From: a bacterium
GTDB taxonomy: Bacteria; Acidobacteriota; HRBIN11; JAKEFK01
NCBI GenBank assembly: GCA_022616075.1
Contig: JAKEFK010000024.1
Span: forward strand, 572-64,571
DNA length: 64,000 bases
Reading direction: 5' to 3'
How positions within the stretch are numbered: the stretch's first letter is position 1; every line of letters begins with the position of its first letter. This document shows, piece by piece, positions 1 to 58,101 of the stretch. The translations under genes and the position numbers were made by a program. The notes under the pieces were generated by a model that had not been told where the DNA came from, made no database searches, and was given only the letters and a program-made list of their open reading frames with translations.

Positions 1-181
1 GATAGAGGCCGTACCATTGGAGTCGAACGATATCTTCTTCTGCCATGGATTCATAACCACGTTGGATCAGCATCGGCAAATCGCTCAAGATCTCGAGTGG
101 CGGCTTCTCTTTTTTTAGTCTCTCGCGAGAATTTTTCTTGAGCACTTGTTCCAGTGTCAGATCTTCATCTGCCAATTTCAC
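1..181 (-). CDS. Ferredoxin-type nitrite/sulfite reductase, N-terminal fragment; gene continues past the window edge
   Basis: Minus-strand translation (LADEDLTLEQVLKKNSRERLKKEKPPLEILSDLPMLIQRGYESMAEEDIVRLQWYGLY) matches the conserved N-terminus of NirA/Sir-type reductases. The only in-frame starts are TTG(175) or GTG(181) just after a U-tract. Confidence 0.45.
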   Translation of the reverse strand, partial: MKLADEDLTLEQVLKKNSRERLKKEKPPLEILSDLPMLIQRGYESMAEEDIVRLQWYGLY

Positions 182-198
182 TCCAAAAACTTTCGCCC

Positions 199-238
199 AA
201 AATAAAAAACCCGCTTCCTCTTCAGGGAGGACAGCGGG
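199..238 (-). terminator. Intrinsic-terminator-like hairpin plus U-tract in the leader, directly upstream of the reductase start (candidate attenuator)
   Basis: Minus-strand CCCGCTGTCCTCC-CTGAA-GAGGAAGCGGG followed by TTTTTTATTTT. An equivalent hairpin is present in copy 2 (4398..4436). Confidence 0.45.
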
Positions 239-294
239 TTAAGAATTTCAGATTTTTAAGGGATTGCTAGAACCGGCGCGTGTGCCGTCTAACG

Positions 295-360
295 GATTTC
301 AAAACCTGCTGCCCTGCCCCTACGAAAGGGGCGGATACAGCAGCAATGTGTTTTGAAATC
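295..360 (-). promoter_or_regulatory. 66-nt extended, near-perfect hairpin in the leader RNA
   Basis: gatttcaaaac...ctgctgccctgcccct-loop-aggggc...cagcag...gttttgaaatc. Stem arms are conserved in copy 2 and the loop differs. Confidence 0.45.
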
Positions 361-385
361 TTTTGTATTCATGAAGACAATTTGA

Positions 386-414
386 ACCTAAGTCAATTGT
401 CCTGAATTGTCAAG
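386..414 (-). promoter_or_regulatory. Sigma70-like promoter (TTGACA-17-TAGGTT) driving the structured leader
   Basis: -35 and -10 hexamers with 17 bp spacing on the minus strand. Confidence 0.3.
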
Positions 415-624
415 CCGTTAGCGATGAATACTTATCATGGATAAGATGAACGAACTTGTGTTTACGGCGATTTATAAATAACGCCGCCTTTTCGGACATG
501 AAGGGCCTTGTAACTATGCGCCCGAAAGTGGGTCAATTTTCAACGCCCCTTGACAGAACACATTCAGGATACGCGGCAAAGTCCAGCCGAAAAGCTGACA
601 ACTCCAGTAGATTTTGAGCCTGCA

Positions 625-2175
625 TCATTGGGAAATGTTCTTTTCAAGCTGCATCCAGAAGGGAAGCCAGAAATGGAATAAAGGAGGTGGAGCTGCTGCG
701 GCAATCTCGCCTGTCAATTTGTTATCCATGAGCCACAATCGAAAACGCGTGCGGTGATTGTGATTTGCTGTATCGGGATTCCGGATCGTTGCATCGGAGC
801 GTCCGGATACTCGACCTTCGATCCAGGTTAGATCGGTTACCGGATGTTCCGCATCATCACCGATTTTTAACCTCGCTGCGCTCTGATCGATCTGCAGCAG
901 GACCGGAATTGTTTTTTCCCATGTCACGATTTTCCCACTCCACCTTCCCTGCAAACCTTCAGGCGCATGGAAGGGAAGTTCAGGAGGTCTGGGTTTTCGC
1001 GTCGGATCGAGCACGCGGCGCGCAGGATAATCTTCAATCAACACATCGAGCACCGAGTCGGCGAGTGAATACGTCAAATCCTGTCGACTGTTCGATAGAA
1101 CAGCAATCACGATTCTTTGCTTCGGTGCAATTCTCAGAATGGTGGAAACACCCGGGGATCCACCTTCATGTCCATACCACAGGTGTCCGAATTTCGATTC
1201 CTCTCTACCTCCCCAACCCAACCCGTAAAACCAATCCAAGCCCCAGAATCCGGAGGCAGAGCCGGAAGACTTTTTCTCCTGGATCATCCGGTCAATGTTT
1301 TCTTTACTCAGAATCTGGCGCTGATCTTTTACCTGCTCTTTCAGGTGAAACATCCCGAACCGCACGAGATCGTGAGCTGTGGAATAGATTGTCCCCGATC
1401 CGCGAGAATCAAAATCATAATCTGGGATGAGGGTCTCTCCAGGCCCGAATCTTTTTGCGACGTTTCGATCCGCAGGACCAACCGAAGTCTGATAAAGCCC
1501 GAGCGGCTGGAAGAGCTCCTGTTGCATGAATCTGCTAAAGGATTGCCCGGATACGTCTTCGATGACCCGTTCGAGAATTCCGTACCCGAGGTTGGAGTAA
1601 TCGTGTTGTTCGTCCGGTTGGCGCACGACAATTGCGTAGCGTTGGACTGTCTCATCCAGGGAAGGGCGTCTTGTTTCATCGTTCGCAAAATAGTAGCGAT
1701 TCTGTTCTGCGAGCCCTGCCCTGTGCTGCAAAATCAGTTGCAACGTGGCATCCTTTGCATCGGCCGCATGTCCTGTAATTTTTGCGTTCTTTAAATAGTT
1801 GTTGGCCGGACGATTCAAATCGACCAGACCATTCTGGACCAGTAGCATCAGACCTGTTGCTGTAAGGGGTTTTGATACGGACGCGATCGGATATGTTGTG
1901 GCGGGAGTTGCCTTCCTCCTGCTGGAGATGTCAGAGAATCCAAATGCCTCCTGCCAGAGGATTACTCCTTTCATCGCAACAGCGATCGAAACGGAAACCG
2001 GCGTGCCTGTTTTCACGGATTGCAGTATCTGGGTGCGTATCGGCTCCAATCGCGAATCCTGTAAGGGGAGCGTTGTCGCTTCCCTGGTCGATGAAATTGT
2101 GATCTGTGTGAGCAGGGCAACCAGCAGGCTAAAGGTAAGCAAGGCGAAGAGAGCGCGCGGTTCGCGGGTGCTCAT
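625..2175 (-). CDS. Class-C beta-lactamase-like serine hydrolase with signal peptide and C-terminal extension domain
   Basis: 516 aa ORF with a hydrophobic N-terminal signal, an SxxK motif (ASVSK) and a YSN motif (DYSNLGYG). Confidence 0.85.
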   Translation of the reverse strand: MSTREPRALFALLTFSLLVALLTQITISSTREATTLPLQDSRLEPIRTQILQSVKTGTPVSVSIAVAMKGVILWQEAFGFSDISSRRKATPATTYPIASVSKPLTATGLMLLVQNGLVDLNRPANNYLKNAKITGHAADAKDATLQLILQHRAGLAEQNRYYFANDETRRPSLDETVQRYAIVVRQPDEQHDYSNLGYGILERVIEDVSGQSFSRFMQQELFQPLGLYQTSVGPADRNVAKRFGPGETLIPDYDFDSRGSGTIYSTAHDLVRFGMFHLKEQVKDQRQILSKENIDRMIQEKKSSGSASGFWGLDWFYGLGWGGREESKFGHLWYGHEGGSPGVSTILRIAPKQRIVIAVLSNSRQDLTYSLADSVLDVLIEDYPARRVLDPTRKPRPPELPFHAPEGLQGRWSGKIVTWEKTIPVLLQIDQSAARLKIGDDAEHPVTDLTWIEGRVSGRSDATIRNPDTANHNHRTRFRLWLMDNKLTGEIAAAAPPPLFHFWLPFWMQLEKNISQ

Positions 2176-2459
2176 GGTGCAAGCTTAAAATCAACGGAAC
2201 TGGCTGTCCAGTGAGTTATTTTCAGCATTTGGATGAGAGAATCTAATTTAGAATTTTTTCGGTCACGACTTCTCCTATCAAACCGATTCGGTAAAGCAAA
2301 CGGTGACCCCCACTGATTTGCCAAACTCCGATCATATAAGACATAACCGCATGAGCTCATGACGTTAATGAAAAAGATTAATTGGTTTCTGTCCAGTAGG
2401 AATCATTAGAATAAGCAAATGAAATTACAGGTTATGAAAGTTCAGGAAGAGAATTTGAG

Positions 2460-3483
2460 ATGAAACTGGTTGAATTACGCGAACGTTACGCAATTGATAA
2501 CCTCATGGTTGTAGAGGGTCCGGTACCGGAAGTACGTGCGGGCGAAGTGTTGATACAAATCAACGCATGTTCCCTGAATTATCGAGATTTGCTGATTGTG
2601 AGGGGTTATGGACGTTGGAAAAAAACCTTGCCGTTCGTGCCACTGTCTGATGCGGCTGGAGAAGTTGTGGAGGTTGGACCTGGAGTTTCAAGAGTTGCAA
2701 TTGGTGACAGTGTTGCTGCGATATTCGTTCCGGCGTGGTTAGATGGAGATCTTTCGGAGGAAAATGATGGGCCTGCCATGGGGGAAATGCTCCCAATACA
2801 GGGTTCTTCCAGAGGAAGTGCTGGTTCGAGTCCCGGAGCACCTGAATGATACGGAAGCGGCAACGCTGCCGTGCGCGGCCGTAACGGCATGGAACGCCTT
2901 GTCCGGAGAAGGTTCGCCGAAGCCCGGGGAGACGGTAGTTGTACTGGGTTCCGGGGGAGTATCGTTGTTTTCGCTTCAATTTGCTCGCCTCAAAAAAGCG
3001 CGTGTTATTGCATGCTCCCGGAGCGAAGCCAAGATAACCCAACTTTTAAAACTGGGTGCAGATCACGCAATCAACTCTGGAGTTTCACCTGGATGGCCTG
3101 AAGTTGTGATGCAATTAACGGAGGGCCGCGGGGCCGATTACATTATAGATGTTGTTGGCAGGCTCGCGGATTCCGTTCATGCACTCCGGTTCGGAGGTCT
3201 CATTAGCGTCATCGGAATGCTCGATCGATTTTCGACTGAAATCGATCCGGCTGTAATAATGGCAAAAAAGGCGCGTCTCCGCGGGCTCCAGGTTGGCTCA
3301 AGGGAAATGTTCGAAGCCATGAATCGCGCCCTTTTCCGCCACCGAATCCGTCCTGTCATCGATCGCGTTTACAACCTGACAGCCGTGCAGGCCGCCTACC
3401 GCAGACTTGAAAGCGGTGATCAGTTCGGCAAAGTATGCATCCGGCTCTGGCCTGATACTAAAGAAAAAAGCGACTTTAACTAA
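2460..3483 (+). CDS. MDR-superfamily NAD(P)H:quinone oxidoreductase/alcohol dehydrogenase, frameshifted
   Basis: The N-terminal half (2460..2849) and C-terminal half (2743..3483, motifs VVVLGSGGVS and EAATLPCAAVTAWNAL) lie in different frames. The shift falls at a G5 run (2779..2783). Confidence 0.75.
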
Positions 3484-3496
3484 GGAAATAGGAATC

Positions 3497-4246
3497 ATGA
3501 GATTCGTCGGAAAAATAGCTCTCGTGACGGGGGCCGGCAAAGGAATAGGGAAGGCTACAGCTCTCAAGCTGGCATCGGAAGGATCTGATGTCGCTGTACA
3601 CTATCTTCGTTCATCGGAACATGCCGAATCAGTTTGTGAGAAAATTCGTGCGCTGGGAGCTCGAGCCTTGGCGGTTCAGGCAGATATTGCCGACAGAGAA
3701 ACCGTAAATAAGATGGTAGCTTGCGTCACTGCGGAGCTTGGCCCGATCCAATTGCTGGTAAACAATGCGGGGGATATAGGGGATATCGATTTCCATCAAT
3801 TGCAGCCTGAGCATTGGGATCGGATTGTTGCAATAAACCTCACAGGCCCCTTCAATCTTATCTGGGCAGTGAAGGAGGGGATGCTTGCTCGACAATTCGG
3901 CAGGATCGTAAATATTTCCTCTATTGCGGCCTTAGCCGTTCGACCGAATCTTCTTCCGTACTCAGCTGCAAAAGCCGGGGTGATCTCATTGACAAAATCC
4001 TGTTGCGCTCCGTTTGCTCAAAAGAATATCAGAATCAATTCCGTCGCACCGGGCGCAATTGATACGGATATGTTGCGTGAGCTTTCCCCACAAACAGTAG
4101 AGCAATTGAAGTCCGCGACTCCGTTGGGCCGTTTGGGCGAACCGGAGGAAATCGCAAATGTTGTCGCGTTTCTTCTCAGTGAGGAATCAAGTTACATGAC
4201 GGGCTCTACAATCATCGTCAGCGGTGGCAGAATGCTGATTCCGTAA
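3497..4246 (+). CDS. SDR-family oxidoreductase (FabG-like)
   Basis: Glycine-rich motif GKIALVTGAGKGIGKA, NNAG, and catalytic YSAAK. RBS-like GGAAATAGGA precedes the ATG at 3497. Confidence 0.85.
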   Translation: MRFVGKIALVTGAGKGIGKATALKLASEGSDVAVHYLRSSEHAESVCEKIRALGARALAVQADIADRETVNKMVACVTAELGPIQLLVNNAGDIGDIDFHQLQPEHWDRIVAINLTGPFNLIWAVKEGMLARQFGRIVNISSIAALAVRPNLLPYSAAKAGVISLTKSCCAPFAQKNIRINSVAPGAIDTDMLRELSPQTVEQLKSATPLGRLGEPEEIANVVAFLLSEESSYMTGSTIIVSGGRMLIP

Positions 4247-4342
4247 TCATGCCATGCTGATTATCGAGCCTTCATAGATATGGCGTCTTTCTGCTGAACC
4301 AAACCGGATTTTGGTGTCAGAGTGACGTATGGACTGCCGCGA

Positions 4343-4649
4343 ACTTGTTCCAGTGTTAGATCATCCTCTGCCAATTTCACTCCAAAAACTTTCGCCCAAA
4401 ATAAAACCCCGCCTCCTCCTCAGAGAGGACAGCGGGTTAGGAATTTCAGATTTTTAAGGGATTGCTAGAACCGGCGGCTGCGCCATCTAACGGATTTCAA
4501 AACCTGCTGCCCTGCCCCTATGATAGGGGCGAATACAGGAGCAATTTGTTTTGAAATCTTTTGTATTCATGAAGATAATTTGAACCTAAGTCAATTGTCC
4601 TGAATTGTCAAGCCGTTAGCGATCAATACTTATCATGGATAAGATGAAA
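4343..4649. repeat. About 307 bp repeat, copy 2: orphan duplicate of the reductase 5' leader, downstream of the SDR gene
   Basis: Same hairpins as copy 1. On the minus strand it encodes FWAKVFGVKLAEDDLTLEQV and then diverges and stops. Confidence 0.8.
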
Positions 4650-4705
4650 TTATCAAATGAGGTGACGCTCATCTAGGAAATTCTTCCTTTCAGATCCTTA
4701 CAAAC

Positions 4706-5313
4706 TCAGCGGCTCTGAGATGTTTTCTGAAAGTAATATCCACCTTCGTAGAAGCCAACTACATTTCCCATTGAATCAAAGACAAAACTAAGAATTTCGC
4801 CAGGAGAATGCGGACCGGACATTCTGAATCTGTCTTTCCCTTCAGGCGTAAGCTCGGAATCGGAGTTTGGATACTCTACCCAACTCAATATCAACTGATT
4901 GTCCTTTATAGCGAGGTCCATACTAAAAGAGAGAACCTCGGATCGATATCGGCCGATGAATTTTCCGAAATCTTTTGACGTTTGGAGGGAAACCGATTGT
5001 TGTTTAGAACGGTGGATCCGATCAAAAATCGGAATTAGCAATCCAGGACTTCTCACAAGTGTTTCGTGGCCACTCCTTTGTATCCATATTCGTTAATATT
5101 ACGATTCCCAGTTTTGATTCCGGGACGAAAGCAATCATCGAATCATACCCGGGAGCGTCGCCTGCGTGACCAACTAGAGTGCGGTCGCTTTTTCGAAAAA
5201 GGGCGAACCCAATTCCGTAACCGAAACTCCAATTGCTATTCATGAACTGAGGCGTCCGCATTTCTCTCAGACTATGAGCTGATAATACTTCAGAATCGTC
5301 TTTGAACTGGCAC
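4706..5313 (-). pseudogene. Second class-C beta-lactamase-like gene, C-terminal part, separated from its N-terminal part by an inversion
   Basis: Encodes QFKDDSEVLSAHSLREMRTPQF...GHAGDAPGYDSMIAFVPESKLGIVILTNMD plus the C-terminal extension. It aligns to residues about 270-516 of the 625..2175 protein. Confidence 0.7.
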
Positions 5314-6258
5314 ACATTTACGCCAAAAAAACTTTGGAAGCCGGCTTTACGTCGGTTCGTGATCTTGGAGCCAGCGAACTGATCGACGTTGCCTTGAAAA
5401 AAGCGATTAACAATGGGAGGATCCCCGGTCCCCGCATGTTCGTTGCCACTCTCACCTTGGGCGCCACAGGTAGTCACGGAGATTGGGGGACCGGCTTTCC
5501 CCATACCTTCGTATGGAAGGATTGAGTAACACTGCGGATGGGGTTGAAGAGATCAGGAAAGCTATTCGACTTCAGATTAAGTACGGAGCCGATCAAATTA
5601 AATTTGCAGCCACTGGTGGGGTATTTAGTGAAGCGGGATCGGCCGAGGGTATGCAGTACTCTCCTAAGGAGATGAGAGCCATCGTGGATGAGGCGCATCT
5701 CTGGGGCAAGAGAGTTGCGGCGCACGCACACGGAACGCAAGGAATAAAAACTGCTGTGGAGGCAGGAGTCGATTCCATTGAACATGGAAGTCTTATAGAT
5801 GAAGAAGGAATTGAGATGATGAAGAAACGTGGCACTTATCTCATTCCCACAATTTTTGCGGCGGATGCTGTTGAAATTTACGGTAAGGATTGGAATCTGC
5901 CTGAAAGTATCCTCGCAAGAGGGCGGTCTATCAACAAAGAAAACGTGAAAACTACAGAAAGGCAATCAAGGCGGGTGTCAAGGTTGGGTTCGGATCAGAC
6001 GCCACCGTATTTCCCCACGGAATGAACGCTGTCGAATTTTCTCATCTAGTCGAAGTGGGAATGACGCCAATGCAGATAATCCAGGCCGCTACAGTTGTTA
6101 ATTCAGAACTGCTCGGTAAGAGCGACGAATTAGGATCCATCGAACCAGGAAAAATATGCTGATTTCATCGCCGTTTATGGAGATCCATTGAAGAATATCG
6201 AGGCGCTCAATGATGTACGATTTGTTATGAAAGGCGGCGTTATTTATAAATCGCCGTA
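5314..6258 (+). pseudogene. Amidohydrolase-family (metal-dependent hydrolase) gene body, detached from its N-terminus and multiply frameshifted
   Basis: LEAGFTSVRDLG...AAHAHGTQGI...GVDSIEHGS...GSDATVFPHGM...YKSP*. Lesions include an 8-nt insertion near 5940 and an extra A in an A5 run near 6150. Confidence 0.7.
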
Positions 6259-6321
6259 GACAGAAGTTCATCTTTACGAATCGAATTCTTTAACTCATTC
6301 GGAAATAAATGAGCTAAGATA

Positions 6322-7213
6322 GTGGTATTTTTGATGATTCCTCGTGGCGCATCATTGATTAAACGGACAAGAAATTCCCTTTTCATCTGTTTCTTTCTAC
6401 TCCTTCACTTCGAAACCGGCCAGAGTCCATCTGCGGCAGCGATGAAGGATGATCCTGAAATAAAAGCTGCCCTGCAAATTGTTGACGAAATCATCACCAG
6501 ACGCCATTCTGTGGCGGAAATATAGGACCTCAGCCGCAATTATTTACGGCGAGAAGGTGATATGGGCAAAGGGATATGGTTATTCCAATATTGAAGAAAA
6601 ACAGCCGGCCACCCCTGATACGATTTATCGAATCGCATCTATCACTAAAGTGTTTACTGCGACAATGCTCATGCAATTGCGAGATGAAGGCAAGCTACAG
6701 CTTGATGAGTCTCTAGTGAGCCATATCCCCAATCTTAAGATTCGCAACCGATTCTCGAGTTCCGCGCTCCTTTCGTTCAGGCAGGTCGCATCACACTCTT
6801 CAGGTCTGCAGCGGGAACCACCCGATATTCAAAAATACTGGGACACTCTTATTTTTCTTCCATTGAACTCATGATGCCTTCCATTATTGAGAAGGCTGAA
6901 ATGGCAACGCCACCGTTAACCTGCTTGAGCTACTCGAATCTGGCTGTCGCCTTGATGGGTCACGCCCTGGAGAGAATCGCAGGTCTGGACTATGAGACAT
7001 ACGTGACCGAGCGAATTACTCAACCTCTAGACATGACAGATACTTTTTTTCATCCTTCCCAGAAAGTCCAAAACAGGGTAGCAATTCCCTACACAAAGAC
7101 TGCGGGAACGGTATCAAAACAGAAGCTAATCTATTCGAGTCTGGGAGGTCTACAGCCCGCGGGAGGACTCTTTTCAACGGTAACGGATCTGGGAAGATTC
7201 ATTTCACTCCACA
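6322..7213 (+). pseudogene. Second class-C beta-lactamase-like gene, N-terminal part (signal peptide, SITK, YSN) with at least two frameshifts
   Basis: Three consecutive ORFs in different frames (6322..6525, 6479..6874, 6871..7320) together align to the N-terminal about 270 aa of a class-C enzyme. The match ends abruptly after ISLHKN at 7213. Confidence 0.7.
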
Positions 7214-7557
7214 AGAATTGCGCGATCGATTGGAGACATCCTGAACAATTCGGCTTCGTAGTTCTCAGCCTGTTCTGTGATATGCGTGTGGGCATCTATC
7301 AAGCCGGGCAGCACAGTTAATTGGGATAGATCAATTCTTCGTGCACTAACCGGAACCTGAACATGATCCGCCGTACCAACTGCTTCAATCGGTTCCCCTT
7401 TTACTAAAATCAGCTGATTATCAATCACTTTTCCAGTTTTGACGTCAATCATCCTACCGGCCTGGAGAACGGAATAACTAACTTCTTCTGCTTGCAAGTT
7501 TGCGAAAAGGGTGGCGAAAAGTGAAAAAACCACGATGAAGAATTGGAGTAATTTCAC
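7214..7557 (-). pseudogene. Amidohydrolase N-terminus (signal peptide plus HxH metal site DAHTH), now separated from the gene body at 5314..6258
   Basis: MKLLQFFIVVFSLFATLFAN...LPGLIDAHTHITEQ. The ORF terminates inside repeat R2 at the inversion junction. Confidence 0.65.
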
Positions 7558-7650
7558 AGTCTGTCCTCCTGTCCTTTTCTAGACTATCCGGAAGCATTGC
7601 TGATGGTATTGGACAAAAAAGATTGATTGGACAAAAAGCACAATCGGTGT
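7498..7650. repeat. About 150 bp repeat R1, copy A (upstream region plus signal-peptide codons MKLLQFFIVVFSLFATLFAN)
   Basis: Near-identical to 9815..9965. Confidence 0.8.
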
Positions 7651-7669: not shown

Positions 7670-9874
7670 TCAACCGGGTCCGAAGCCCAGAGGCGAAACA
7701 TTCAAGGCCGGTTCAGGCCCCGGCCCAAGGTGGCGCTCGAACCAGTCTAGCACCCGCTGCAGGACGTCCACCTGATGGGCTCGCTCGCTGATGCCATGCG
7801 GCTCGCGTGGGTAGACGACCATCTCGGTCTCTGTACCGACGAGCCTCAGAGCATGATAAAACTCCCACCCTTGGCCTACAGGAGCCAAGTCGTCCGCTTC
7901 GCCGTGCAAGACGAGAGTAGGCGTACGGCAGTTTTTGACATGCGCCAGCGGGGAGCGGTTCCAATAGGCATCGGGTCGATCGATGTGAGTACCGAGGAAG
8001 TAGGGCGAGAAGAACGACGGTGTAAACGTGCCGCTCCCATTGGAGCTCGCCAAATTCGACAGTCCGGCGCTCATGACGGCTGCCTTGAAGCGGTTGGTTT
8101 GAGTAACCGCCCAGGCGGTCATGTAGCCTCCGTACGACCCGCCCCCGATCCCGAGCCGGTGCGGATCGGCGATCTTCTGATCGATCAAATGGTCCAGGCC
8201 GTCCATGATGTCCGTGAAGTCTCCGCCTCCCCAGTCGTCGCGGTTCGCCTCGGCGAATCTCCAGCCCTGGCCGCTTGATCCACGAGGATTCGGCAGCAGA
8301 ACCACGAAGCCGTGAGACGCCAGGAGTTGGCCCCATTCCCACGCTGAGCCATGCCAACCTGCCCACCATGCCCACTCCGGCCCGCCGTGCACTTGCACGA
8401 CTGTCGGCTGCGGGTTTCCCTTTCGGAAACCCGGCGGGGTGATCAGCACACCATGGATTATACGGCCGTCCTGGCTGCTCTTCCACGATATTTCCTCACT
8501 CTCACCGAGCCGCCAGGAGGCGGCCTGCGGATGGAGAGAGGTAAGACGGCGACCGGGCTCGCCGATACGCAGCACCCACACATCATCGGGCGACTGGCCC
8601 GTACCGCTGACGTACGCCAGCACACGGGAATCGGCGCTCGCGCTGAATCTGCGGCCAGGCCACAGGAAGGTCTGAGCCTCGCCTAGCACCTGTACCGCTT
8701 CCGTCGAGACCTTCACGCGCAATAGGCGCGTCCGCGCAGCCTCGAAGCTCTGGAATAGCAGATGCTCAGAATCCGAATCCCATTCTGCGCCCCAGTCTCC
8801 CGTCCAGAGCGAGCCCGGGTAGTCGTCCAGCAGATAGCGCGGCCGACCGCCGGCGGCGGGAACCAAAGCCACCCGGATGGAAATGTTGGCGGGAGATGGG
8901 GTCGAGAAAGCGATGGTGTGTCCATCCGGCGACCAGCGGACTATCTGTTCCGAATAGGCAATCGCTTCGCTCAGGGTGCGCGCCACTTGGCCCCCCTGCC
9001 TTCGGATCACAACCAGTCTGGAGGGCTGATAGTGGACGTCTTCCATGCGAGGCGTCTTTGCGGTCACGATTGCGATCTCCTCTCCACCGGGCGACCAGTC
9101 AAAATCGCTGATCTCGAGACGCTGTGGTGATACCGGTTCGGCATGACCGTCGACCAAACGCACGACGTACAGTCGCGAGTACCTGTAATTATGGTCAGCG
9201 TACCGTGCATCGTCGCCATCCTTTGATTTTTTCACCTCTTCTTCGGAGGGAGCTTCGCGCAGCGTAAAGGCGATCATCGAGCCGTCTGGTGACCAGCGAA
9301 ATCGCAGTACCTCTCCCCGGAGCGCGGTGACCGGCTCGGCCTCACCACCGTCCAGACGCAGCAGCCAGAGCTGGGCCCCGGCTCCGCTCAGTGCCCCCTG
9401 TGGACACGGGCGATCGGAGAGGAAGGCGAGCCGCCTGCCTTCTGGGGACCAGCGAGGCGTGGTGTCGTTGGCTAGATGCGACGTCAACCTGCGAGCCGGT
9501 GCGTTGCCGTCGGTTGGGACGATCCAGATATCGGCCTTGGGGAGCGGATCAGGGCGTGCCGAATCGACCGCCTCACGTACCACGAAGGCGATCCGCAAGC
9601 CGTCTGGTGAGACTTGGGCGTCGCTGACCTCGCGGATGGCGACCAGATCCTCGGGGGTTACAGAGCGCTTCGCCTCGCTGATGGTGTCCGAAGACGCTGA
9701 TGTAAAGCCTGCTTCCAAAGTTCTTTGGCGTATGTGTGTGCAAAAATTGCGCGATCGATTGGAGACATTCTGAACATTTCGGTTTTCGTAGTTCCCCGCC
9801 TGGTCTGTTTGTCCGTTTGCGAAAAGGGTGGCGAAAAGTGAAAAAACCACGATGAAGAATTGGAGTAATTTCAC
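7670..9874 (-). CDS. S9-family serine peptidase (prolyl oligopeptidase/acylaminoacyl-peptidase-like) with N-terminal beta-propeller; GC-rich chimeric gene
   Basis: GGSYGG nucleophile elbow, and C-terminal Asp and His motifs (HGEADDLAP, REPHGI). The body is about 65% GC against about 48% in the flanks. The first about 60 codons come from the amidohydrolase leader (R1-R2-R3). Confidence 0.85.
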   Translation of the reverse strand: MKLLQFFIVVFSLFATLFANGQTDQAGNYENRNVQNVSNRSRNFCTHIRQRTLEAGFTSASSDTISEAKRSVTPEDLVAIREVSDAQVSPDGLRIAFVVREAVDSARPDPLPKADIWIVPTDGNAPARRLTSHLANDTTPRWSPEGRRLAFLSDRPCPQGALSGAGAQLWLLRLDGGEAEPVTALRGEVLRFRWSPDGSMIAFTLREAPSEEEVKKSKDGDDARYADHNYRYSRLYVVRLVDGHAEPVSPQRLEISDFDWSPGGEEIAIVTAKTPRMEDVHYQPSRLVVIRRQGGQVARTLSEAIAYSEQIVRWSPDGHTIAFSTPSPANISIRVALVPAAGGRPRYLLDDYPGSLWTGDWGAEWDSDSEHLLFQSFEAARTRLLRVKVSTEAVQVLGEAQTFLWPGRRFSASADSRVLAYVSGTGQSPDDVWVLRIGEPGRRLTSLHPQAASWRLGESEEISWKSSQDGRIIHGVLITPPGFRKGNPQPTVVQVHGGPEWAWWAGWHGSAWEWGQLLASHGFVVLLPNPRGSSGQGWRFAEANRDDWGGGDFTDIMDGLDHLIDQKIADPHRLGIGGGSYGGYMTAWAVTQTNRFKAAVMSAGLSNLASSNGSGTFTPSFFSPYFLGTHIDRPDAYWNRSPLAHVKNCRTPTLVLHGEADDLAPVGQGWEFYHALRLVGTETEMVVYPREPHGISERAHQVDVLQRVLDWFERHLGPGPEPALNVSPLGFGPG

Positions 9875-9965
9875 TGTCTGTCCTCCTGTCCTCTTCTAGA
9901 CTATCTGAAGCGGGGTTGATGGTATTGGACAAAGAAGATTGCTTGGACAAAAAGCACAATCGGTG
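9815..9965. repeat. About 150 bp repeat R1, copy B, fused onto the S9 peptidase gene; followed by R2/R3 at 9700..9800
   Basis: Near-identical to 7498..7650. The adjacent 9700..9800 matches 7215..7265 (R2) and 5314..5345 (R3, opposite orientation). Confidence 0.8.
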
Positions 9966-9986
9966 TTCGACCGCAGGAGCTACCAC

Positions 9987-10796
9987 TTACGAACAAAGAG
10001 TGCGATATTGCGCCGGCGTCAGTCCTGTCATGCGCTTGAAGACTCTACAAAAATGGCTTTGATCATAGAAACCGACATCAGCGGCGATCTTAGCCAGAGA
10101 TGGGTTGATGCGCGAAGAGAGAAGTTCGCAGGCAGCTTGAATGCGACGCTTCCGTAAATAAGCGCCTATCGAGTGGCCGTAAACTTTCCGAAACGATCGC
10201 GAGAGCCGCGTAGAGTTTACACCAGATCGGCGCGACAGTTCCTCGAGTTTGAGCGGACTTGCATAATTTGAATCAATGATCTCTTTTGTCATAACAAGCC
10301 ATGGCTGAAGCGTCGATGTCTTCATGCAGAAGGTCTCTCGAGAAACTTGTCCAAGCATCTCAAGAATGATCCCCTCTATGATTAACGGATGGGTTTTCCC
10401 TCCGTATCGTAATTCCTGTACTAGATTCGCGGCAAGCCAGGACAGACGACCACCGCGAAAAATAATCGATTCTCCAGTTTTTTGTAGAAGCTCAGCGAGG
10501 CAATGTGCCCATTGTTCACCAACTTCCACATGCAAGACGCGAGCTCCCCTGGAAGAAATCCGGTGGGAGTGTTCTTCGCTGGAAGGATGAAATCCAACCG
10601 TCCATGGGTTCCATTTAATGTTTTTGCGCCCATAAGTATCGACGAATGCACCTTTCAACAGTATCCCAATGGAAACGCAGGAATGAGAGTGAAGGGGTAT
10701 CACCAAATCCGGAGGATAAAAGTATTCGATCAATCGAAATCCGGTAAGCTGTCTATCGTCCAAGGTTTCTCGTTTATTATCGCATCCTGAACTCAT
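9987..10796 (-). CDS. AraC-family transcriptional regulator (cupin sensor plus dual HTH)
   Basis: C-terminal AraC HTH signature (YLRKRRIQAACELL...IAADVGFYDQSHFCRVFKRMTGLTPAQYR). Confidence 0.8.
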   Translation of the reverse strand: MSSGCDNKRETLDDRQLTGFRLIEYFYPPDLVIPLHSHSCVSIGILLKGAFVDTYGRKNIKWNPWTVGFHPSSEEHSHRISSRGARVLHVEVGEQWAHCLAELLQKTGESIIFRGGRLSWLAANLVQELRYGGKTHPLIIEGIILEMLGQVSRETFCMKTSTLQPWLVMTKEIIDSNYASPLKLEELSRRSGVNSTRLSRSFRKVYGHSIGAYLRKRRIQAACELLSSRINPSLAKIAADVGFYDQSHFCRVFKRMTGLTPAQYRTLCS

Positions 10797-10950: not shown

Positions 10951-11293
10951 CTATGGTTTGTTTGTTTGCCAACCCGGGAAAACGGCTGCTCGATCCCACC
11001 AGGTACTTTCGGGAAAATCAGTCGAAAGCTGTTTCCAATGTTCCTTTAAGATTTCGCGATTCCTTCCAGCTATTCGGTATGCTGCGATTCCCTTCCAAAA
11101 TAACGCTTCAGGAGTAACCGTCAAATTCTTTGTTGAGCAGTTGCGTCACCCGTTCGTTCGGATACGTCACGGCATCCATTTTCCCGCAACCCAGTCAACC
11201 GGGAACGTAGAAATCGATAAAAAGCGCCTTTTGTTTTTCTTGCGCCTTTCTTTGCGCTTCTTCAATGTTGGAACACCATAAGATGTCCGGCAT
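10951..11293 (-). pseudogene. Decayed paralog of the thioredoxin-fold UxxC gene at 35129; retains the in-frame TGA
   Basis: MPDILWCSNIEEAQRKAQEKQKALFIDFYVPG-TGA-LGCGKMDAVTYPNERVTQLLNKEF, then an internal deletion and frameshift, then a C-terminal match (EALFWKGIAAYRIAGRNREILKEHWKQLSTDFPESTWWDRAAVFPGW). Confidence 0.55.
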
Positions 11294-11459
11294 GTTTGCT
11301 CCTTCTTTCTGAACCAGAATAGATTCTTCAAGATCATTGGTCGAATTAATTGTTTTCAGCATGTCGATGAGACATTGTCATGAGAAAAGGGAGAAGTCAC
11401 GCATGATGGCTTCTCATGCAAATCTTGAATAAAACTAATTGGACAGGGACTCCTCTCCG

Positions 11460-14479: not shown

Positions 14480-16726
14480 ATGAAGGTCCTGTTTTTTATC
14501 TTGCTTGCTCAGACAGCATTTGCGTTTACCAGGCCGGTCGTGGAGATTTCCCGAATCCATCAAGCGCCTCAAATAGAAGATTTTCTGGACATGGATTCCG
14601 ACAGCGAGAGAGACCTTCTGAAAATAGAAGGATTCCGGCAGCGGGAGCGGAATGACAATAAGCCCTCCACGCGTCTTACCAGGGTTTTTCTGGGTTATGA
14701 TGACCGCAATTTCTATGCAGTTTTTCAATGTTTCGAGAAGGATCGCGACAAAATTCGCGCGCGGATGATGAATCGCGGCAGTAACGCGATCTACAATGAC
14801 GACATCGTTACAGTTCAGCTGGACACGTTCAATGACCAGCGCCGCGCGTATCAGTTCGTGTCCAACCCATTCGGCGTCCAGCAGGATGCCGTTTGGTTTG
14901 AGGATTCCGCAACCTTTGATTACTCCTTCGATACTGTTTTCAAAACGAAAGCAAGGATCACTCAAGACGGATATGTTGTCTTGTTTGCGATTCCATTTCG
15001 CAGTTTACGGTTTTCGTCCGATGAGCGTCAAAACTGGGGAATTCTTTTAACTCGTTATATTCCCGGGATCGATGAGCAAACTTACTGGCCTCAGTATTCG
15101 AACAAAATCTCCGGACGACTGAACCAGACGGCGGTTCTGAATGGTCTGAGGAATATTTCACCCGGGCGTAATATTCAGCTTCTGCCGTACACTGCGTTTC
15201 GGTCTTTTCAGGCGCTTGATCTTCGGAACCTGTCCACTCCGCGGATTGTGGAGGACCCGGCGGAGAATGAGGTGGGAATAGATGGCAAATTCATCGCGAG
15301 GGACAGTCTTGTTGTCGATGTGACGGCGAATCCTGATTTCAGCCATGTAGAATCGGATGAACCGCAGGTCACGGTGAATCAAAGATTTGAGGTGCTCTTC
15401 CCTGAAAAACGTCCGTTCTTTCTGGAGAATCAAAGCTTTTTTGAAACTCCGATTAATTTACTGTTTACGCGGAGAATTGCTGATCCGCAATGGGGGACGC
15501 GCCTGACCGGAAAGATTGGGAATTACAGTCTGGGCGCTTTGCTTAGCGATGATGAATCGGAAGGAAAGAGTCTGCCTGAAGATCATCCGTTGTCGGGGGA
15601 ACGCGCATATTATGGCACCATCCGGGTAAGTCGCGATCTCGGACACCAATCTTCAATTGGGTTGATTTACGCCGACAGCCGATTTGCCAGCAGCTTCAAC
15701 CGCGCAGGCGGTGTTGATGCTCATATCAAATTCAGCGATCAGTGGGTTTCTACTTTTCAAGCTGTTACAACGTCCACCAGGAATCAAGATGGAACCAGAA
15801 GTGCCGGGCCCGGATACAGAGTGAACTTGCGGCGGAATGGGCGCCATTTTGTTTACAATTTCGACTACCATGATTTCAGTCCCGGATTTGTCTCGCGTAC
15901 TGGATTTGTGAATCGCACCGATATTCGACGATTCGATCAACAGGCAGGCTACAGTTTCCGCCCGGAAAGCAACTTTCTGTTCGCGTGGACGCCGCATTAC
16001 GATATTTCCTATGTCTATGATCACAGCGGAACACTGATAGATTGGTTTCACAATCCATGGGTATCGCTTGATATGGCTGGACAAACGTTCCTGGGGTTTG
16101 GTTATACCTTTTTGGCTACCAGGGTAAAACCGGACGACTTCCCGGTCCTCACTGAGAATCTCAGGATATCCCGTCACGAGTGGGGTGTGACCTTCAACAC
16201 GGAAGCATTGAGACGGCTCAGTGTCGCATCGTCACTATTTGTTGGCAGATCTGTAAATTTTGTGCCCCGCGAAGATAAGCCTCCCGCCGGTGCCGATTTT
16301 CTGAACGCAGCCTTAACCCTTTCCTTCCGCCCGACGAATTCCTTCACCATTGATACTGCGTACATCCTGAACAGGCTTACAGATCCTCAGACATCTTTCG
16401 ATATCTTCAACAATCACATTATCCGGACAAAATGGAATTATCAAATCAATCGCGAACTTTCGATTCGTGTCATTGTGCAGTATGACACTCTGCTGGCCAA
16501 TACGAATTTTACTAGGTTGCAAACAGTGAAAAACCTGAATGCGGATTTATTGGTCACCTACATGGTTCATCCAGGCACCGCGCTTTTTGTCGGATTCAAT
16601 AGCAATCTTCAAAATTTGGATCCGAGTCTTGCCATGACTGGCTCCGGCTTGCTGCGTACTCGCAACGATTTCCTGAACGATGGCAAACAGTTCTTCGTAA
16701 AATACTCACATTTGTTCCGATTCTGA
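14480..16726 (+). CDS. DUF5916-type protein: N-terminal CBM9-like domain plus putative outer-membrane beta-barrel; paralog 1
   Basis: 748 aa with a signal peptide and a C-terminus ending ...FFVKYSHLFRF. Paralogous to 31618..33903. Confidence 0.5.
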   Translation: MKVLFFILLAQTAFAFTRPVVEISRIHQAPQIEDFLDMDSDSERDLLKIEGFRQRERNDNKPSTRLTRVFLGYDDRNFYAVFQCFEKDRDKIRARMMNRGSNAIYNDDIVTVQLDTFNDQRRAYQFVSNPFGVQQDAVWFEDSATFDYSFDTVFKTKARITQDGYVVLFAIPFRSLRFSSDERQNWGILLTRYIPGIDEQTYWPQYSNKISGRLNQTAVLNGLRNISPGRNIQLLPYTAFRSFQALDLRNLSTPRIVEDPAENEVGIDGKFIARDSLVVDVTANPDFSHVESDEPQVTVNQRFEVLFPEKRPFFLENQSFFETPINLLFTRRIADPQWGTRLTGKIGNYSLGALLSDDESEGKSLPEDHPLSGERAYYGTIRVSRDLGHQSSIGLIYADSRFASSFNRAGGVDAHIKFSDQWVSTFQAVTTSTRNQDGTRSAGPGYRVNLRRNGRHFVYNFDYHDFSPGFVSRTGFVNRTDIRRFDQQAGYSFRPESNFLFAWTPHYDISYVYDHSGTLIDWFHNPWVSLDMAGQTFLGFGYTFLATRVKPDDFPVLTENLRISRHEWGVTFNTEALRRLSVASSLFVGRSVNFVPREDKPPAGADFLNAALTLSFRPTNSFTIDTAYILNRLTDPQTSFDIFNNHIIRTKWNYQINRELSIRVIVQYDTLLANTNFTRLQTVKNLNADLLVTYMVHPGTALFVGFNSNLQNLDPSLAMTGSGLLRTRNDFLNDGKQFFVKYSHLFRF

Positions 16727-31617: not shown

Positions 31618-33903
31618 ATGATCTCAATCATCAGTCGTGTGCTGCTTGCATTGTTGATATTTCACGCAATCGAATCGGAAGCACAAATCCATTCGAATCT
31701 GACGCCTAAGATATTGCAGATCCGGCGTATAGACGACGCGCCAGTTTTGGAAGATTTTCTGGACATGGAACCTGACTCACAGATTGAAAAGTCTCTCACG
31801 AAAGTAGAAGGTTTCATTCAGCGGGTTCCGTCTGATGGATCTCCATCGAGCCGCCGGACTGTCGTTTATCTCGGCTATGATTCATCGCATTTTTACGCAG
31901 TCTTTCTATGTTTTGATCCGGAGCCGGAAAAGATTCGGGCAAGAATGTTCAACCGCGGCAGTGAAATCATACTCTCCGACGATGTAGTGACGCTTCAACT
32001 GGACACGTTTCACGACAAGCGGCAGGCTTATGTTTTCGGATCGAATCCTCTTGGAGTGCAATCCGATTGGGTCTGGGTGGAGGGACGGGGCTTCGATCAA
32101 TCTTACGATGCCGTATTCCAAACTAAGGGCCAATTGACGGACCGGGGCTACGTAGTGTGGATGGCGATTCCATTTACAACTTTGCGTTTTCCATCAAAAC
32201 CGAACCAGGAATGGGGAGTTCTTCTCACTCGCGACATCCCTCGATTGAATGAAGAAACATTCTGGCCTCACTACTGCAGCCATATTGAAGGTCGCTTGAA
32301 TCAAATTGCAGACCTTACAGGTCTGGAGCAAATTACTTCCGGGAAAAATACTCAGTTGATCCCATATGCCTCCGCACGATCTTTTCGAGCACTGGATCAG
32401 AGACCAGATGTGACGCCTCATTTCATTGACAGCCGCTTGGATCCGGAGCTGGGCTTAGATACGAAACTGATTATTAATGACAGCCTGGTTCTCGATCTAA
32501 CCTTGAACCCCGATTTCAGCCAGGTTGAATCGGACGAACCTCAGGTTACAGTGAACGAACGTTTTGAAGTCTTCTTCCCGGAAAAGCGGCAGTTCTTTTT
32601 GGAGAACGCCAGCTCGTTTCAGACTCCGATGAACCTCTTGTTTACGCGAAGAATCGCAGATCCACAGATCGGAGCTCGACTGACGGGCAAGATCGGAAAA
32701 TATGCCATAGGCGCTCTCTCAGTCAACGACGAGTCGCCCGGTAAGAATGTCGCCGAACACCATCCAATATCGGGAGATAAAGCTATATTTTCGGTATTCC
32801 GGATTAGCCGGGACATTCTGGAAGGGTCCAACCTGGGTATCCTGTTTACGGACCGCGAATTCGAAAGCTCATTTAATCGTGTAGCGGGGATTGATGGACG
32901 TTTGAAGCTAAATTCGAATTGGGCGGGATCTTTTCAAGCCGTCACCAGCGTTACGCAGTTATTGGACGGGAGACATCTATCAGGACCTGCTTACCAATTG
33001 GATTTATTGCGAAGCGGGCGAAAGTTGTCCTACGAATTCATTTACGCCGGCATAAGCCCAGACTTTCGAACTCAGTCAGGATTTGTTGAACGAACGGACA
33101 TCCATAGTTTTCATCAGTCCGCAACCTACAGCTTTCGTCCCGAAGGAAAGCATCTTATTAACTGGGGTCCTGCTCTATTCACAGATTACATACTGGACTA
33201 TTCGGGAAAGCGCCTGGACTGGGTATTCAATCCCCATTTCTTAATGGAATTCACAGGGCAAACCTTGATCTCGTTGCGATACGCAGCATTCAGGGAGAAA
33301 TTACGTGCCGTTGATTTTCCTGTTCTTGCCAAAGATCAAGACTTTTCACACCATCAATTCGCAGCCTCTTTTGCAACCCAATTGATTCCCCAGTTCAGTG
33401 TCAATGCTTTCGGGTTTCATGGAAGTAAAGTCAATTTCAATCCAGCCGAAGGAACGATCCCCTTCTTGGGTCAAACAACACACCTGGAATTGACGTTGAC
33501 TCTCAGACCAGGCAGATCTTTGACTGTCGATCACACTTATCTTCTTACTGACATGAATCAACGAAAGACGGGCGTTCCTATTTTCACAGACCACATTCTT
33601 CGTTCCCGTTGGAGCTATCAATTCAGCCGTGAACTCTCCATGCGGGTCATCCTACAGTACAATGCGTTGCTGACCAATCCTGAGCTTACCGATCTCCCTA
33701 CGATCAAATCCCTGAATGCCGACTTTCTGCTGACCTATCTAATTCATCCCGGAACAGCTCTGTACATTGGTTACAACAGCAATCTGGAGAACCTGCATCC
33801 TGATTTGATCCGGAGTTCCACAGGTCTGGTTCGAACCAGGAACAGCTTCATTAATAATGGAAGGCAATTCTTTGTAAAGTATTCCTATCTGCTTCGCTTG
33901 TGA
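31618..33903 (+). CDS. DUF5916-type CBM9-like/outer-membrane beta-barrel protein, paralog 2
   Basis: 761 aa, collinear with 14480..16726 (LEDFLDME..., VYLGYDSSHFYAVF, ...FFVKYSYLLRL). Confidence 0.5.
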   Translation: MISIISRVLLALLIFHAIESEAQIHSNLTPKILQIRRIDDAPVLEDFLDMEPDSQIEKSLTKVEGFIQRVPSDGSPSSRRTVVYLGYDSSHFYAVFLCFDPEPEKIRARMFNRGSEIILSDDVVTLQLDTFHDKRQAYVFGSNPLGVQSDWVWVEGRGFDQSYDAVFQTKGQLTDRGYVVWMAIPFTTLRFPSKPNQEWGVLLTRDIPRLNEETFWPHYCSHIEGRLNQIADLTGLEQITSGKNTQLIPYASARSFRALDQRPDVTPHFIDSRLDPELGLDTKLIINDSLVLDLTLNPDFSQVESDEPQVTVNERFEVFFPEKRQFFLENASSFQTPMNLLFTRRIADPQIGARLTGKIGKYAIGALSVNDESPGKNVAEHHPISGDKAIFSVFRISRDILEGSNLGILFTDREFESSFNRVAGIDGRLKLNSNWAGSFQAVTSVTQLLDGRHLSGPAYQLDLLRSGRKLSYEFIYAGISPDFRTQSGFVERTDIHSFHQSATYSFRPEGKHLINWGPALFTDYILDYSGKRLDWVFNPHFLMEFTGQTLISLRYAAFREKLRAVDFPVLAKDQDFSHHQFAASFATQLIPQFSVNAFGFHGSKVNFNPAEGTIPFLGQTTHLELTLTLRPGRSLTVDHTYLLTDMNQRKTGVPIFTDHILRSRWSYQFSRELSMRVILQYNALLTNPELTDLPTIKSLNADFLLTYLIHPGTALYIGYNSNLENLHPDLIRSSTGLVRTRNSFINNGRQFFVKYSYLLRL

Positions 33904-35014: not shown

Positions 35015-35035
35015 AATCCTTTCATCGAAAGGATT
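35015..35035. promoter_or_regulatory. Perfect-arm palindrome AATCCTTT-N5-AAAGGATT about 95 bp upstream of the UxxC thioredoxin-fold gene
   Basis: 8-bp inverted arms. The half-site resembles the AATCTT/AAGATT arms upstream of 35786 and 36828. Confidence 0.35.
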
Positions 35036-35128
35036 CTCATGATAGTCCTTCATCGAAATACTGAAAACAATTAATTTGACAAATGAATGATCCAGCCCGT
35101 ATTCTATTTGCTGAAACGGAGTGCATAT

Positions 35129-35722
35129 ATGCCGGGAATCCTGTGGTCTTCTAACGTTGATGACGCGCTCATGAAAGCCCAAAAAGAAAAAAAAGCGCTT
35201 TTTATCGATTTCTACGTTCCCGGTTGACTGGGTTGCGGGAAAATGGATGCCGTGACGTATCCGAACGAACCGGTGGCGCAACTGCTCAACAAAGAATTTG
35301 CCTGTGTCAAATGCAACGTGCAGGAGAAAGTGCCCGAGCTGCTATTGAATTTCGGAAAAATCCAATGGACTCCCACGTTTGTCATCGCGGATCACGCGAA
35401 AAATCAGATCCGAAGGATTATCGGGTATCGGCCGCCTGTCGAATTCCAGGCCGAACTTCACGTTTCGCTCGGCCTGATTGATTTGCTTCACAATCGTAAC
35501 AGGGAGGCTCTCCTGCAATTTGAGGGCATTGCGAATCGATTCCCGAAGTCATTGGTTGCGGCGGAATCTGTGTTCTGGAAGGGAATAGCTGCATATCGAA
35601 CTGCAGGCAGGAATCGAGAAGTTTTAAAAGAATACTGGAATCAGCTTTTAACCGACTATCCGGAAAGTACGTGGTGGGATCGAGCGGCTGTTTTTCCTGG
35701 CTGGGAACCAAACCGCCCATAA
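35129..35722 (+). CDS. Thioredoxin-fold (Thioredoxin_7/DsbD-gamma-like) protein with in-frame TGA in a UxxC redox motif; putative selenoprotein
   Basis: ATG 35129 ...ALFIDFYVPG-TGA(35225..35227)-LGCGKMDAVTYPNEPV... continues in frame to 35722. The TGA sits exactly where the first Cys of CxxC is expected. A hairpin GGATGC-CGUGAC-GUAUCC lies 20 nt downstream (SECIS candidate). Confidence 0.6.
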
Positions 35723-35756
35723 TCTCAATCAGCAGCAGGAATAGGAAGTTCGTTGC

Positions 35757-35779
35757 AATCTTAGACTTATGAGAAGATT
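35757..35779. promoter_or_regulatory. Palindrome AATCTT-N11-AAGATT abutting the RBS of the arginase-family gene; part of a roughly 50 bp leader shared with 36828
   Basis: 35752..35800 and 36795..36843 are near-identical through the first 5 codons (MAARS versus MTARS). Confidence 0.4.
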
Positions 35780-35785
35780 GGAGAA

Positions 35786-52473: not shown

Positions 52474-52479
52474 TTGTTT

Positions 52480-58099: not shown

Positions 58100-58101
58100 C
58101 T

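Follow-up and report, generated by a model that had tools for sequence, protein, structure and literature searches.

A recently inactivated paralog of a thioredoxin-like selenoprotein gene in an acidobacterial contig and a probable gene-conversion tract over its in-frame TGA

We describe here two copies of a thioredoxin-like selenoprotein gene in a stretch of 64,000 nucleotides from an acidobacterium of the HRBIN11 lineage (GenBank assembly GCA_022616075.1, contig JAKEFK010000024.1, positions 572 to 64,571 of the forward strand). This whole stretch is called the window and all coordinates, unless a contig is named, are those of the window. Copy B (35129..35722, plus strand) is intact and copy A (10951..11293, minus strand) is broken. 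Our analysis makes it very probable that copy A is a recently inactivated paralog, that is, a pseudogene, of copy B, that copy B is a genuine selenoprotein gene of a known family, and that the TGA which the two copies have in common lies in a tract of gene conversion.

Results and Discussion

The intact copy and its broken paralog

Copy B has 197 codons with one TGA read through and it codes for a DsbD-like thioredoxin domain with the motif VPG-U-LGC, in which U stands for selenocysteine (Sec), followed by a tail like the tetratricopeptide repeat (TPR) domain of YbgF/CpoB. The UGA codon (35225..35227, plus strand) aligns with the first Cys of CxxC in the Cys homologs and is followed by a hairpin of the selenocysteine insertion sequence (SECIS) type at 35245..35262 on the same strand. 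The Pfam matches of copy B are Thioredoxin_7 PF13899 (5.5e-11), Thioredoxin_2 PF13098 (3.2e-9), and DUF255, and its tail gives a weak TPR signal. In the Protein Data Bank (PDB), the profile of the family finds the disulphide isomerase 2kuc and the thioredoxin domain at the C terminus of DsbD, the U column being the first Cys of CxxC in both, and the C-terminal ~75 residues of the family match the YbgF/CpoB TPR domain. Judging from what is known of the family, copy B would be a cytoplasmic thiol-disulfide oxidoreductase. Alignment puts selenocysteine at its attacking residue, the first position of the CxxC-type motif, and the TPR-like domain at its C terminus probably serves to hold a partner protein. 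If recoding follows the standard mechanism of bacteria, SelB with Sec-tRNA would bind the hairpin 17 nt downstream of the UGA and thereby recode it.

The first-pass annotation of this DNA had reported a second, decayed copy on the minus strand about 24 kb from the intact UxxC gene, with its middle deleted and frameshifted and its C-terminal block still recognisable. Pairwise alignment with 35129-35722 confirms the paralogy and bears out both details. Copy A aligns with copy B from start codon to stop codon as the remnant of a thioredoxin-like/TPR selenoprotein gene, and similarity begins ~90 bp upstream of the ATG and finishes at the stop codon. The sole large difference is one gap of 251 bp in copy A, and the block of copy B that has no counterpart there (35303..35553, plus strand) codes for what remains of the thioredoxin fold, with the WTPT cis-Pro loop, and for the start of the tail. 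Since 251 leaves a remainder of 2 when divided by 3, the deletion, whose junction is at 11119..11120 on the minus strand, shifts the frame of copy A. Translated from the minus strand, copy A reads MPDILWCSNIEEAQRKAQEKQKALFIDFYVPG-TGA-LGCGKMDAVTYPNERVTQLLNKEFDGYS-stop. Codons 1-32 (MPDILWCSNIEEAQRKAQEKQKALFIDFYVPG) lie at 11198..11293, the in-frame TGA is at 11195..11197 at the Sec position of the family, and the SECIS-type hairpin GGAUGC-CGUGAC-GUAUCC, which is the same as that of copy B and fits the family consensus, is at 11160..11177 with its first base 17 nt past the UGA. This N-terminal frame ends at the TGA at 11108-11110, 11 codons past the junction. A second frame holds ...FWKGIAAYRIAGRNREILKEHWKQL...WWDRAAVFPGWQTNKP, and the C-terminal remnant (VTPEALFWKGIAAYRIAGRNREILKEHWKQLSTDFPESTWWDRAAVFPGWQTNKP, then stop; 10951..11118, minus strand), which is in a frame different from that of the N-terminal part, is identical to copy B at 127/168 nt and 42/55 amino acids. 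Both leftover frames are still open, and the sequence GAAGGAG at 11299-11305, which resembles a ribosome-binding site (RBS), is intact.

Copy A does not code for a full-length thioredoxin fold because the counterpart of copy B codons 59-142 is deleted and the frame is shifted. If it is still transcribed it could give at most a 61-residue fragment, unable to fold as thioredoxin, which, if Sec is inserted, consists of beta1, the active-site turn, and part of helix 1, without the WTPT loop and the remaining strands. A programmed +1 frameshift that would rejoin the two halves was considered and rejected, because the rejoined product would still be without most of the thioredoxin fold.

The two copies also have an upstream block in common. 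In copy A this putative promoter/operator region (CTGAAAACAATTAATTYGAC) is at 11334..11386 on the minus strand, and in copy B the block and a sigma-70-like promoter (TTGACA-18-TATTCT, 35076-35105) together span 35034..35105 on the plus strand. The -35 hexamer is TTGACA in copy B and in the ortholog of copy B from a related strain (contig L001, described below) and is degraded to TCGACC in copy A. The conserved 53 nt, TCATCGAnATnCTGAAAACAATTAATTyGACnAATGA, are found at 11334-11386, at 35034-35086, and at 3820-3875 of L001, and are 83% identical between copies A and B despite the saturated synonymous sites of the genes. This block is a candidate operator or promoter common to the paralogs.

The near-identical core

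The ~80 bp of near-identity around the TGA noticed in the first-pass annotation proved to be an exact run of 76 nt (11152-11227) within a block of 108 nt, 105 of which are identical, at 11120..11227 (minus strand) in copy A and 35195..35302 (plus strand) in copy B. The flanks are very different. Codons 1-22 are identical at 47/66 nt (71%), with a proportion of synonymous differences (pS) of 0.63, a synonymous divergence (dS) of about 1.4, and a ratio of nonsynonymous to synonymous divergence (dN/dS) of 0.18, and over the last 168 nt, or 55 codons, the identity is 76%, with pS 0.70, dS about 2.1, and dN/dS 0.058. In the 36 codons of the core, which have 24 synonymous sites, there are 0 synonymous differences and three non-synonymous ones. 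Third positions differ at 0/36 codons in the core versus 38/78 in the flanks (Fisher P = 1.5e-8), and a run of 76 nt was reached in 0/200,000 permutations. The pattern ATGGATGCNGTNACGTATCC occurs at only two places in the window, copies A and B, with 0 expected. From its start, 30 nt ahead of the UGA, the identical run takes in many wobble positions that are free to vary in the family.

How recent the identity is can be seen by comparison with L001, a contig from run SRR16971107 that carries the ortholog of copy B from a related strain, with 93% nucleotide identity and the same neighbouring genes. Copy B and L001 agree at 103/108 nt in the core and at 552/594 nt over the whole gene. Thus, the core of copies A and B is no more diverged than that of copy B and L001, despite flanks that are only 71-76% identical between A and B. 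As a control we used 183 genes of the family. The 106 pairs with a flank identity of 0.70-0.80 have mean core identities of 0.74-0.83, and no pair with flanks below 0.88 has a core identity of 0.95 or more, except for one indel artefact and one close pair (flanks 0.86-0.91). The pair L099/L203, which at first looked like a second case of a core far above its flanks, was rejected as an artefact of an N-terminal indel.

These results indicate that the core is a recent gene-conversion tract between the copies. The core of copy A and copy B have an ancestor about as recent as that of the two strains, whereas the rest of copy A is far older, and this is the signature of conversion. It follows that the two TGAs are one inherited observation and not two. 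The first-pass annotation had argued from the TGA in both paralogs that it is ancestral and functional, and this argument fails, because a core without a synonymous difference between saturated flanks points to conversion. Moreover, a stop codon in a frameshifted pseudogene is under no selection and its survival there is therefore uninformative.

The TGA of copy B as a selenocysteine codon

The other part of that claim, that the TGA most likely codes for Sec, holds for the intact gene, and it does so on family evidence, namely, the position of the TGA, the Cys homologs, and covariation in the hairpin. Together these strongly support Sec as the product of the TGA in copy B. The TGA is exactly six codons upstream of the MDAVTYPN-type peptide in 86/86 loci; 80 of these came from a metagenome scan seeded with MDAVTYPN, in which the TGA was not part of the pattern, and the others are six further contigs. 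In 26 aligned full-length homologs the U column is mostly Cys (CxGC), with about six Ser, Asn or Glu, and the Cys three residues later is invariant.

In the hairpin, the stem wobble positions GAU, ACG, and UAU are invariant, each in 71/71 distinct sequences, while wobble positions outside the stem vary freely. Among the loci found in genomes with a pattern that includes the TGA, a change of Asp to Gly (GAU to GGU) on one arm of the stem goes with a change of UAU to UAC on the other, and in 148 distinct sequences this pair is A-U in 118, G-C in 25, G-U in 4, and unpaired in 1. Over the whole stem, 99.6% of the cells are paired, whereas shuffles reach 92.1% and slid controls no more than 60.5%. 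This 6-bp hairpin, which begins 17 nt after the UGA, is also what RNAalifold predicts. Folding of single sequences around the TGA also predicts the hairpin, with z-scores of -0.2 to -0.7, which are not significant, and there was no Rfam match at the gathering threshold anywhere in the window, the hairpin being short and without a curated model. The covariation shows that the family hairpin is under selection at the RNA level.

The loop of the hairpin has G and U at positions 2 and 3. In addition, positions 1 and 4 of the loop (N-G-U-N-A-C), which are alignment columns 33 and 36 (35251 and 35254 in copy B, 11171 and 11168 in copy A), are complementary in 146/148 sequences from loci L001-L172 (A-U 58, G-U 42, C-G 36, G-C 10, other 2). 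This suggests an extra pair in the loop that leaves only the G and U exposed, with A-C bulged, and this may reflect how SelB reads the loop.

The family of copy B

Zhang et al. 2006 list, in supplementary file 4 (PMC1794560), 'Thiol:disulfide interchange protein' selenoproteins of Geobacter metallireducens (...LLDFFNPGUIGCKQMDAVAYPD...) and G. uraniumreducens (...LLDFFNPGUIGCKQMDAVTYPN...YPDSEWVKRAQPYSLL), and report this family in three Deltaproteobacteria. Copy B is 34% identical to the G. uraniumreducens selenoprotein over 183 amino acids (BLASTP, E = 2e-40) and the match covers both domains. A 2026 review (PMC13188914) gives the family as PF13098 with UxxC, 'predicted with high confidence', and credits it to its reference 12. 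The nearest named relatives of copy B are in Thermoanaerobaculia, Gemmatimonadales, and other Acidobacteriota, with 38-42% identity. The reference credited by the review we take to be Kryukov and Gladyshev 2004.

An exhaustive HMMER search found 7,038 relatives (E up to 0.001) and a word-indexed protein search with copy B only 2 matches; the same kind of word-indexed search with the 55 C-terminal residues of copy A gave no candidates, which reflects the tool. Most of the best-matching relatives are open reading frames (ORFs) of ~150 residues with MDAVTYP or MGAVTYP as their first residues, so that the part up to the Sec codon is cut off, and a minority have 186-203 residues. Likewise, in protein clusters P0003, P0004, P0007, and P0073 and in ~200 loci (L002-L210) the family members are mostly recorded as ORFs truncated at Sec. 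The named truncated members that we examined carry the labels 'TPR repeat protein', 'BamD', and 'TolA-binding protein', and it is the similarity of the TPR domain that leads to the names 'BamD' and 'TolA-binding protein' for these truncated forms in public annotation. The family had been published by 2006, yet NCBIfam release 20 contains no model for it.

Copy B, as a single-protein query, found no close relative in 185,579 species genomes, and a metagenome scan aimed at close relatives of copies A and B gave only distant family members with at most 39% identity. A looser DNA-pattern scan of genomes gave at least 120 loci in Thermodesulfobacteriota, Acidobacteriota, Gemmatimonadota, Planctomycetota, Nitrospirota, Bacillota, and Armatimonadota; since this pattern requires the TGA, these loci show the spread of the family and not conservation of the TGA. 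Among the matches listed in that scan are the isolates Geobacter sp. AOG1, Geomobilimonas luticola, and Desulfofustis glycolicus. Selenoproteins in Acidobacteria were already reported in the 2006 survey (PMC1794560).

Alternative explanations

The core could in principle have stayed identical without any conversion, held by a double constraint, as RNA through the SECIS element and as protein through the active-site peptide. In the family the 18-nt hairpin and the MDAVTYP peptide indeed hardly vary, so that part of the conservation of the core is expected from constraint alone, and family pairs generally show a core identity somewhat above that of the flanks. What makes this explanation improbable is that the run covers wobble positions that vary freely (offsets -12 to -1, +5, +8, +11, +14, +26, +29, +38, and +41 from the UGA), that the sole core of 0.97 or more among the 106 control pairs is the indel artefact, and that in the comparison of copy B with L001 the core is not markedly above the rest of the gene. 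It is also conceivable that a collapsed or mis-joined repeat in the assembly produced the deletion or the core identity, because an exact repeat of 76 nt can break or mislead short-read assemblers. We looked at this with Logan contigs, which are separate assemblies from public read sets and were retrieved by exact-sequence look-up. Four of them are exact substrings of the window: L090 (SRR16971108; 9845-11181), L088 (11198-12640), L087 (35241-38010), and L089 (SRR16971104; 11421-12640). L090 links, with zero mismatches, the AraC-family gene next to copy A, the C-terminal remnant with its A-specific differences, the deletion junction, and 62 nt of the core. It is true that Logan contigs break in the shared run, but L088, L090, and L087 end exactly 30 nt (k-1) within it, which is how an assembly graph with k = 31 behaves at a true repeat, and a repeat of 76 nt is shorter than typical reads and so is spanned by them. 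Since these contigs are exact, the deletion and most of the core identity were not made by the assembler of the window, and we regard an assembly artefact as very unlikely, less likely still than constraint.

Another explanation is that copy A is alive. It could be a short Sec-dependent ORF, with a leader peptide or the selenopeptide of 61 residues as its product, or it could act as a transcript that carries a SECIS element ahead of the AraC-family gene. Copy A still has its start codon and, ahead of it, a strong RBS-like GAAGGAG. The UGA, the intact hairpin, and the conserved upstream block are kept as well, and the next gene on this strand, 154 nt downstream, is that of the AraC family. But recent descent and conversion account for all of these features, the thioredoxin fold of the fragment is without beta2-beta4, the -35 element has decayed, and neither the truncated form in any other family member nor a short-form homolog was found. 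We therefore give a live copy A only a small chance. Least probable of all, to the point that we barely entertain it, is that the TGA is a plain stop, the annotated ORF of 159 residues from MDAVTYP a real protein, and the upstream part a separate small ORF. Public annotation does call such ORFs of ~150 amino acids, as 'TPR repeat protein' or 'BamD', but the upstream 32 codons are conserved as protein and provide beta1 and the active-site motif, the Cys homologs read straight through, the compensatory changes in the hairpin are RNA-level selection, and the family is already published as a selenoprotein family. There are points that weigh against our own explanation of a converted and recently broken pseudogene, besides the share of core conservation that constraint accounts for. 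No intact ortholog of copy A was found in any collection searched. In the Logan look-ups no contig specific for copy A covers the 16 nt 11182-11197, which include its TGA, and exact look-ups of the N-terminal ORFs of copies A and B returned only the known Logan contig or nothing. The Logan contigs may share reads with the window, which makes them an independent assembly and not an independent sample. In the comparison of three taxa, either copy could have been the donor of the conversion. Finally, selA, selB, selD, and tRNA-Sec were not found in the 64-kb window, where a tRNA scan gave no tRNA of any kind, and Sec decoding by the host is assumed.

The history of copy A and its meaning

Our preferred explanation, inactivation of copy A with conversion over its TGA, implies the following history. 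An old duplication would have given copies A and B, as the flank synonymous sites are saturated, and purifying selection would have acted on both copies for most of the time since. A recent gene conversion would have homogenised 108 bp or more around the Sec codon and the hairpin, and a 251-bp deletion from the edge of the tract would have taken away most of the thioredoxin fold and put the remainder out of frame. The low dN/dS of the flanks (0.18 and 0.058) means that through most of its history copy A was functional and is incompatible with long neutrality of either lineage, while the open residual frames, the intact RBS-like GAAGGAG, and the degraded -35 hexamer mean that the inactivation is recent. 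The right-hand edge of the conversion tract is where the deletion begins; part of the tract may have gone with the deleted segment, or the lost homology may have set the limit of the tract. Conversion and deletion could have come in either order, or one aberrant recombination event could have caused both. The TGA and the hairpin of copy A would then be passengers of the conversion and not maintained.

A different view of the same pair is that these inverted repeats, 24 kb apart with an identical core of 76-108 bp, are an active recombination pair rather than a gene and a relic. If this were true, recombination in the core would invert the segment between the copies, so that the promoter, RBS, and first 22 codons of copy A would be joined to the intact 3' part of copy B and the deleted 3' part would be left behind the promoter of copy B. 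One intact selenoprotein body would thus be switched between the ChrB/AraC/LysR and the alcohol dehydrogenase (ADH)/arginase contexts, and the tract would be a by-product. The basis of this view is the geometry of the repeats, and we think the odds are long against it.

Copies A and B are divergent additions, copy A a broken one, to a selenoprotein family that is already published, and as such they will not surprise a specialist. Copy A is an ordinary pseudogene and no independent proof that the TGA is selenocysteine. The value of the pair is in what it teaches about such evidence. After conversion, a TGA common to two paralogs in one genome does not count as two independent observations, and selenoprotein-discovery pipelines that count in-frame TGAs conserved between paralogs could be misled by conversion tracts. 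The copy A locus would also be a selenoprotein loss in progress, in which a lineage-specific duplicate long under purifying selection was knocked out by a single deletion; in the 2006 survey selenoprotein loss was inferred only from the presence or absence of genes (PMC1794560). As to public annotation, most Sec-containing members found here have been entered as truncated ORFs of ~150 residues, which amounts to widespread mis-annotation, and the family reaches well past the Deltaproteobacteria of its original description.

Surroundings of the two copies

The neighbours of copy A are the AraC-family regulator (9987-10796, same strand), a protein with a ChrB C-terminal domain, and a LysR regulator. 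Those of copy B are a DUF5916 protein, a zinc alcohol dehydrogenase, and an arginase-family protein. The arginase-family gene just downstream of copy B (35786-36640) is missing from L001 (window 35753-36773 versus 4502-4559 of L001), where the ortholog of copy B is followed directly by the counterpart of window 36774 onward, a strain-level indel of ~1 kb. Two DUF5916 paralogs, 51% identical over 741 amino acids, are at 14480-16726, ~3 kb from copy A, and at 31618-33903, ~1 kb from copy B, and there are zinc-ADH genes near both ends, at 2460-3483 and 33926-34891. These pairs are possibly the trace of an old segmental duplication, though the genes are not in the same order or orientation.

An S9 prolyl-oligopeptidase gene (7670-9874, minus strand) lies about 1 kb from copy A. 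It has 57-64% G+C versus about 47% around it and is flanked by direct repeats of 90-94% identity (7212-7650 and 9741-9966); this region looks like a foreign insertion or a duplication-mediated rearrangement. Further out, beta-lactamase-family ORFs are split (5022-5504, minus strand; 6479-6874 and 6871-7320, plus strand), a zinc-ADH is apparently split (2460-2849 and 2743-3483), the repeats 144-450 and 4343-4648 are 91-95% identical, and 452-491 and 6230-6269 form an inverted pair. All this suggests that 144-7320 is a decaying or rearranged region, and the gene fragments in it mean that copy A is not the only broken gene nearby. The window also includes an ADOP-family duplicated permease (974 bits, cut-off 622). 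This permease and the nearest relatives of copy B make an Acidobacteriota-like host likely. At the other end of the window there is a defence island (46724-63943) with a bacteriophage exclusion (BREX) system, in which BrxL (53500-55548), PglZ (55538-58099), a PglX-type methylase of 1248 amino acids (58102-61848), and a BrxC-like winged helix-turn-helix protein (62696-63943) are encoded; before these come a gene for a helix-turn-helix/M78 peptidase, a GHKL ATPase, and a DUF6791-ThiF protein.

Comparison with known systems

As a pair, copies A and B resemble known cases of concerted evolution, with conversion between a functional gene and a pseudogene paralog, in that a short near-identical tract is set in diverged paralogs, here inverted on one replicon. 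They differ from the usual case in that the tract spans a recoded stop together with the recoding signal, and because of this the pseudogene looks as if it 'keeps' the TGA. The E. coli fdhF-type SECIS is a hairpin within the coding sequence soon after the UGA, with G and U in the apical loop. The family hairpin is like it in its position in the coding sequence shortly after the UGA and in the G and U of the loop, a comparison that serves as a lead and not as a test, and is unlike it in sequence and in a stem that starts 17 nt after the UGA. Its binding by SelB is putative.

Copy B agrees with the published thiol:disulfide interchange family in length, architecture, the motif PG-U-xGC-xxMDAVTYP, the WTPT loop, the C-terminal motif YPxSxW, and the hairpin. 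Copies A and B and L001 nevertheless form a divergent branch, with at most 42% identity to any other member found, and unlike the published members this branch has VPG-U-LGC and a tail that ends in WWDRAAVFPGW; copy A differs from them also in being broken. With the C-terminal thioredoxin domain of DsbD (PDB 4ip6, 1uc7, 2fwe), 2kuc, and Pfam Thioredoxin_7 and Thioredoxin_2, copy B has the thioredoxin fold in common, its U aligning with the first Cys of CxxC, but the DsbD domain and 2kuc have Cys and are periplasmic domains or exported, whereas copy B is without a signal peptide and has Sec and an extra TPR-like domain. With the TPR domain of YbgF/CpoB (PDB 2xev, 6g5s) and BamD it has TPR-like helical repeats in common, a similarity at the level of the domain only. 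The NCBIfam selenoprotein families VPGUxxT types 1 and 2 (NF041382, NF041383), Trx7/PDZ (NF041199), and TsoB (NF045694) likewise have a Thioredoxin_7-type domain with Sec after PG or VPG. Copy B is different in having UxxC instead of UxxT and another domain partner, and it scores below all NCBIfam selenoprotein cut-offs (41.4 bits versus 805 for TsoB and 21.8 versus 275, 20.4 versus 350, and 19.4 versus 300 for the others). With scores so far under the cut-offs, with UxxC, and with a different partner domain, copy B is not a member of the VPGUxxT, TsoB or Trx7/PDZ families.

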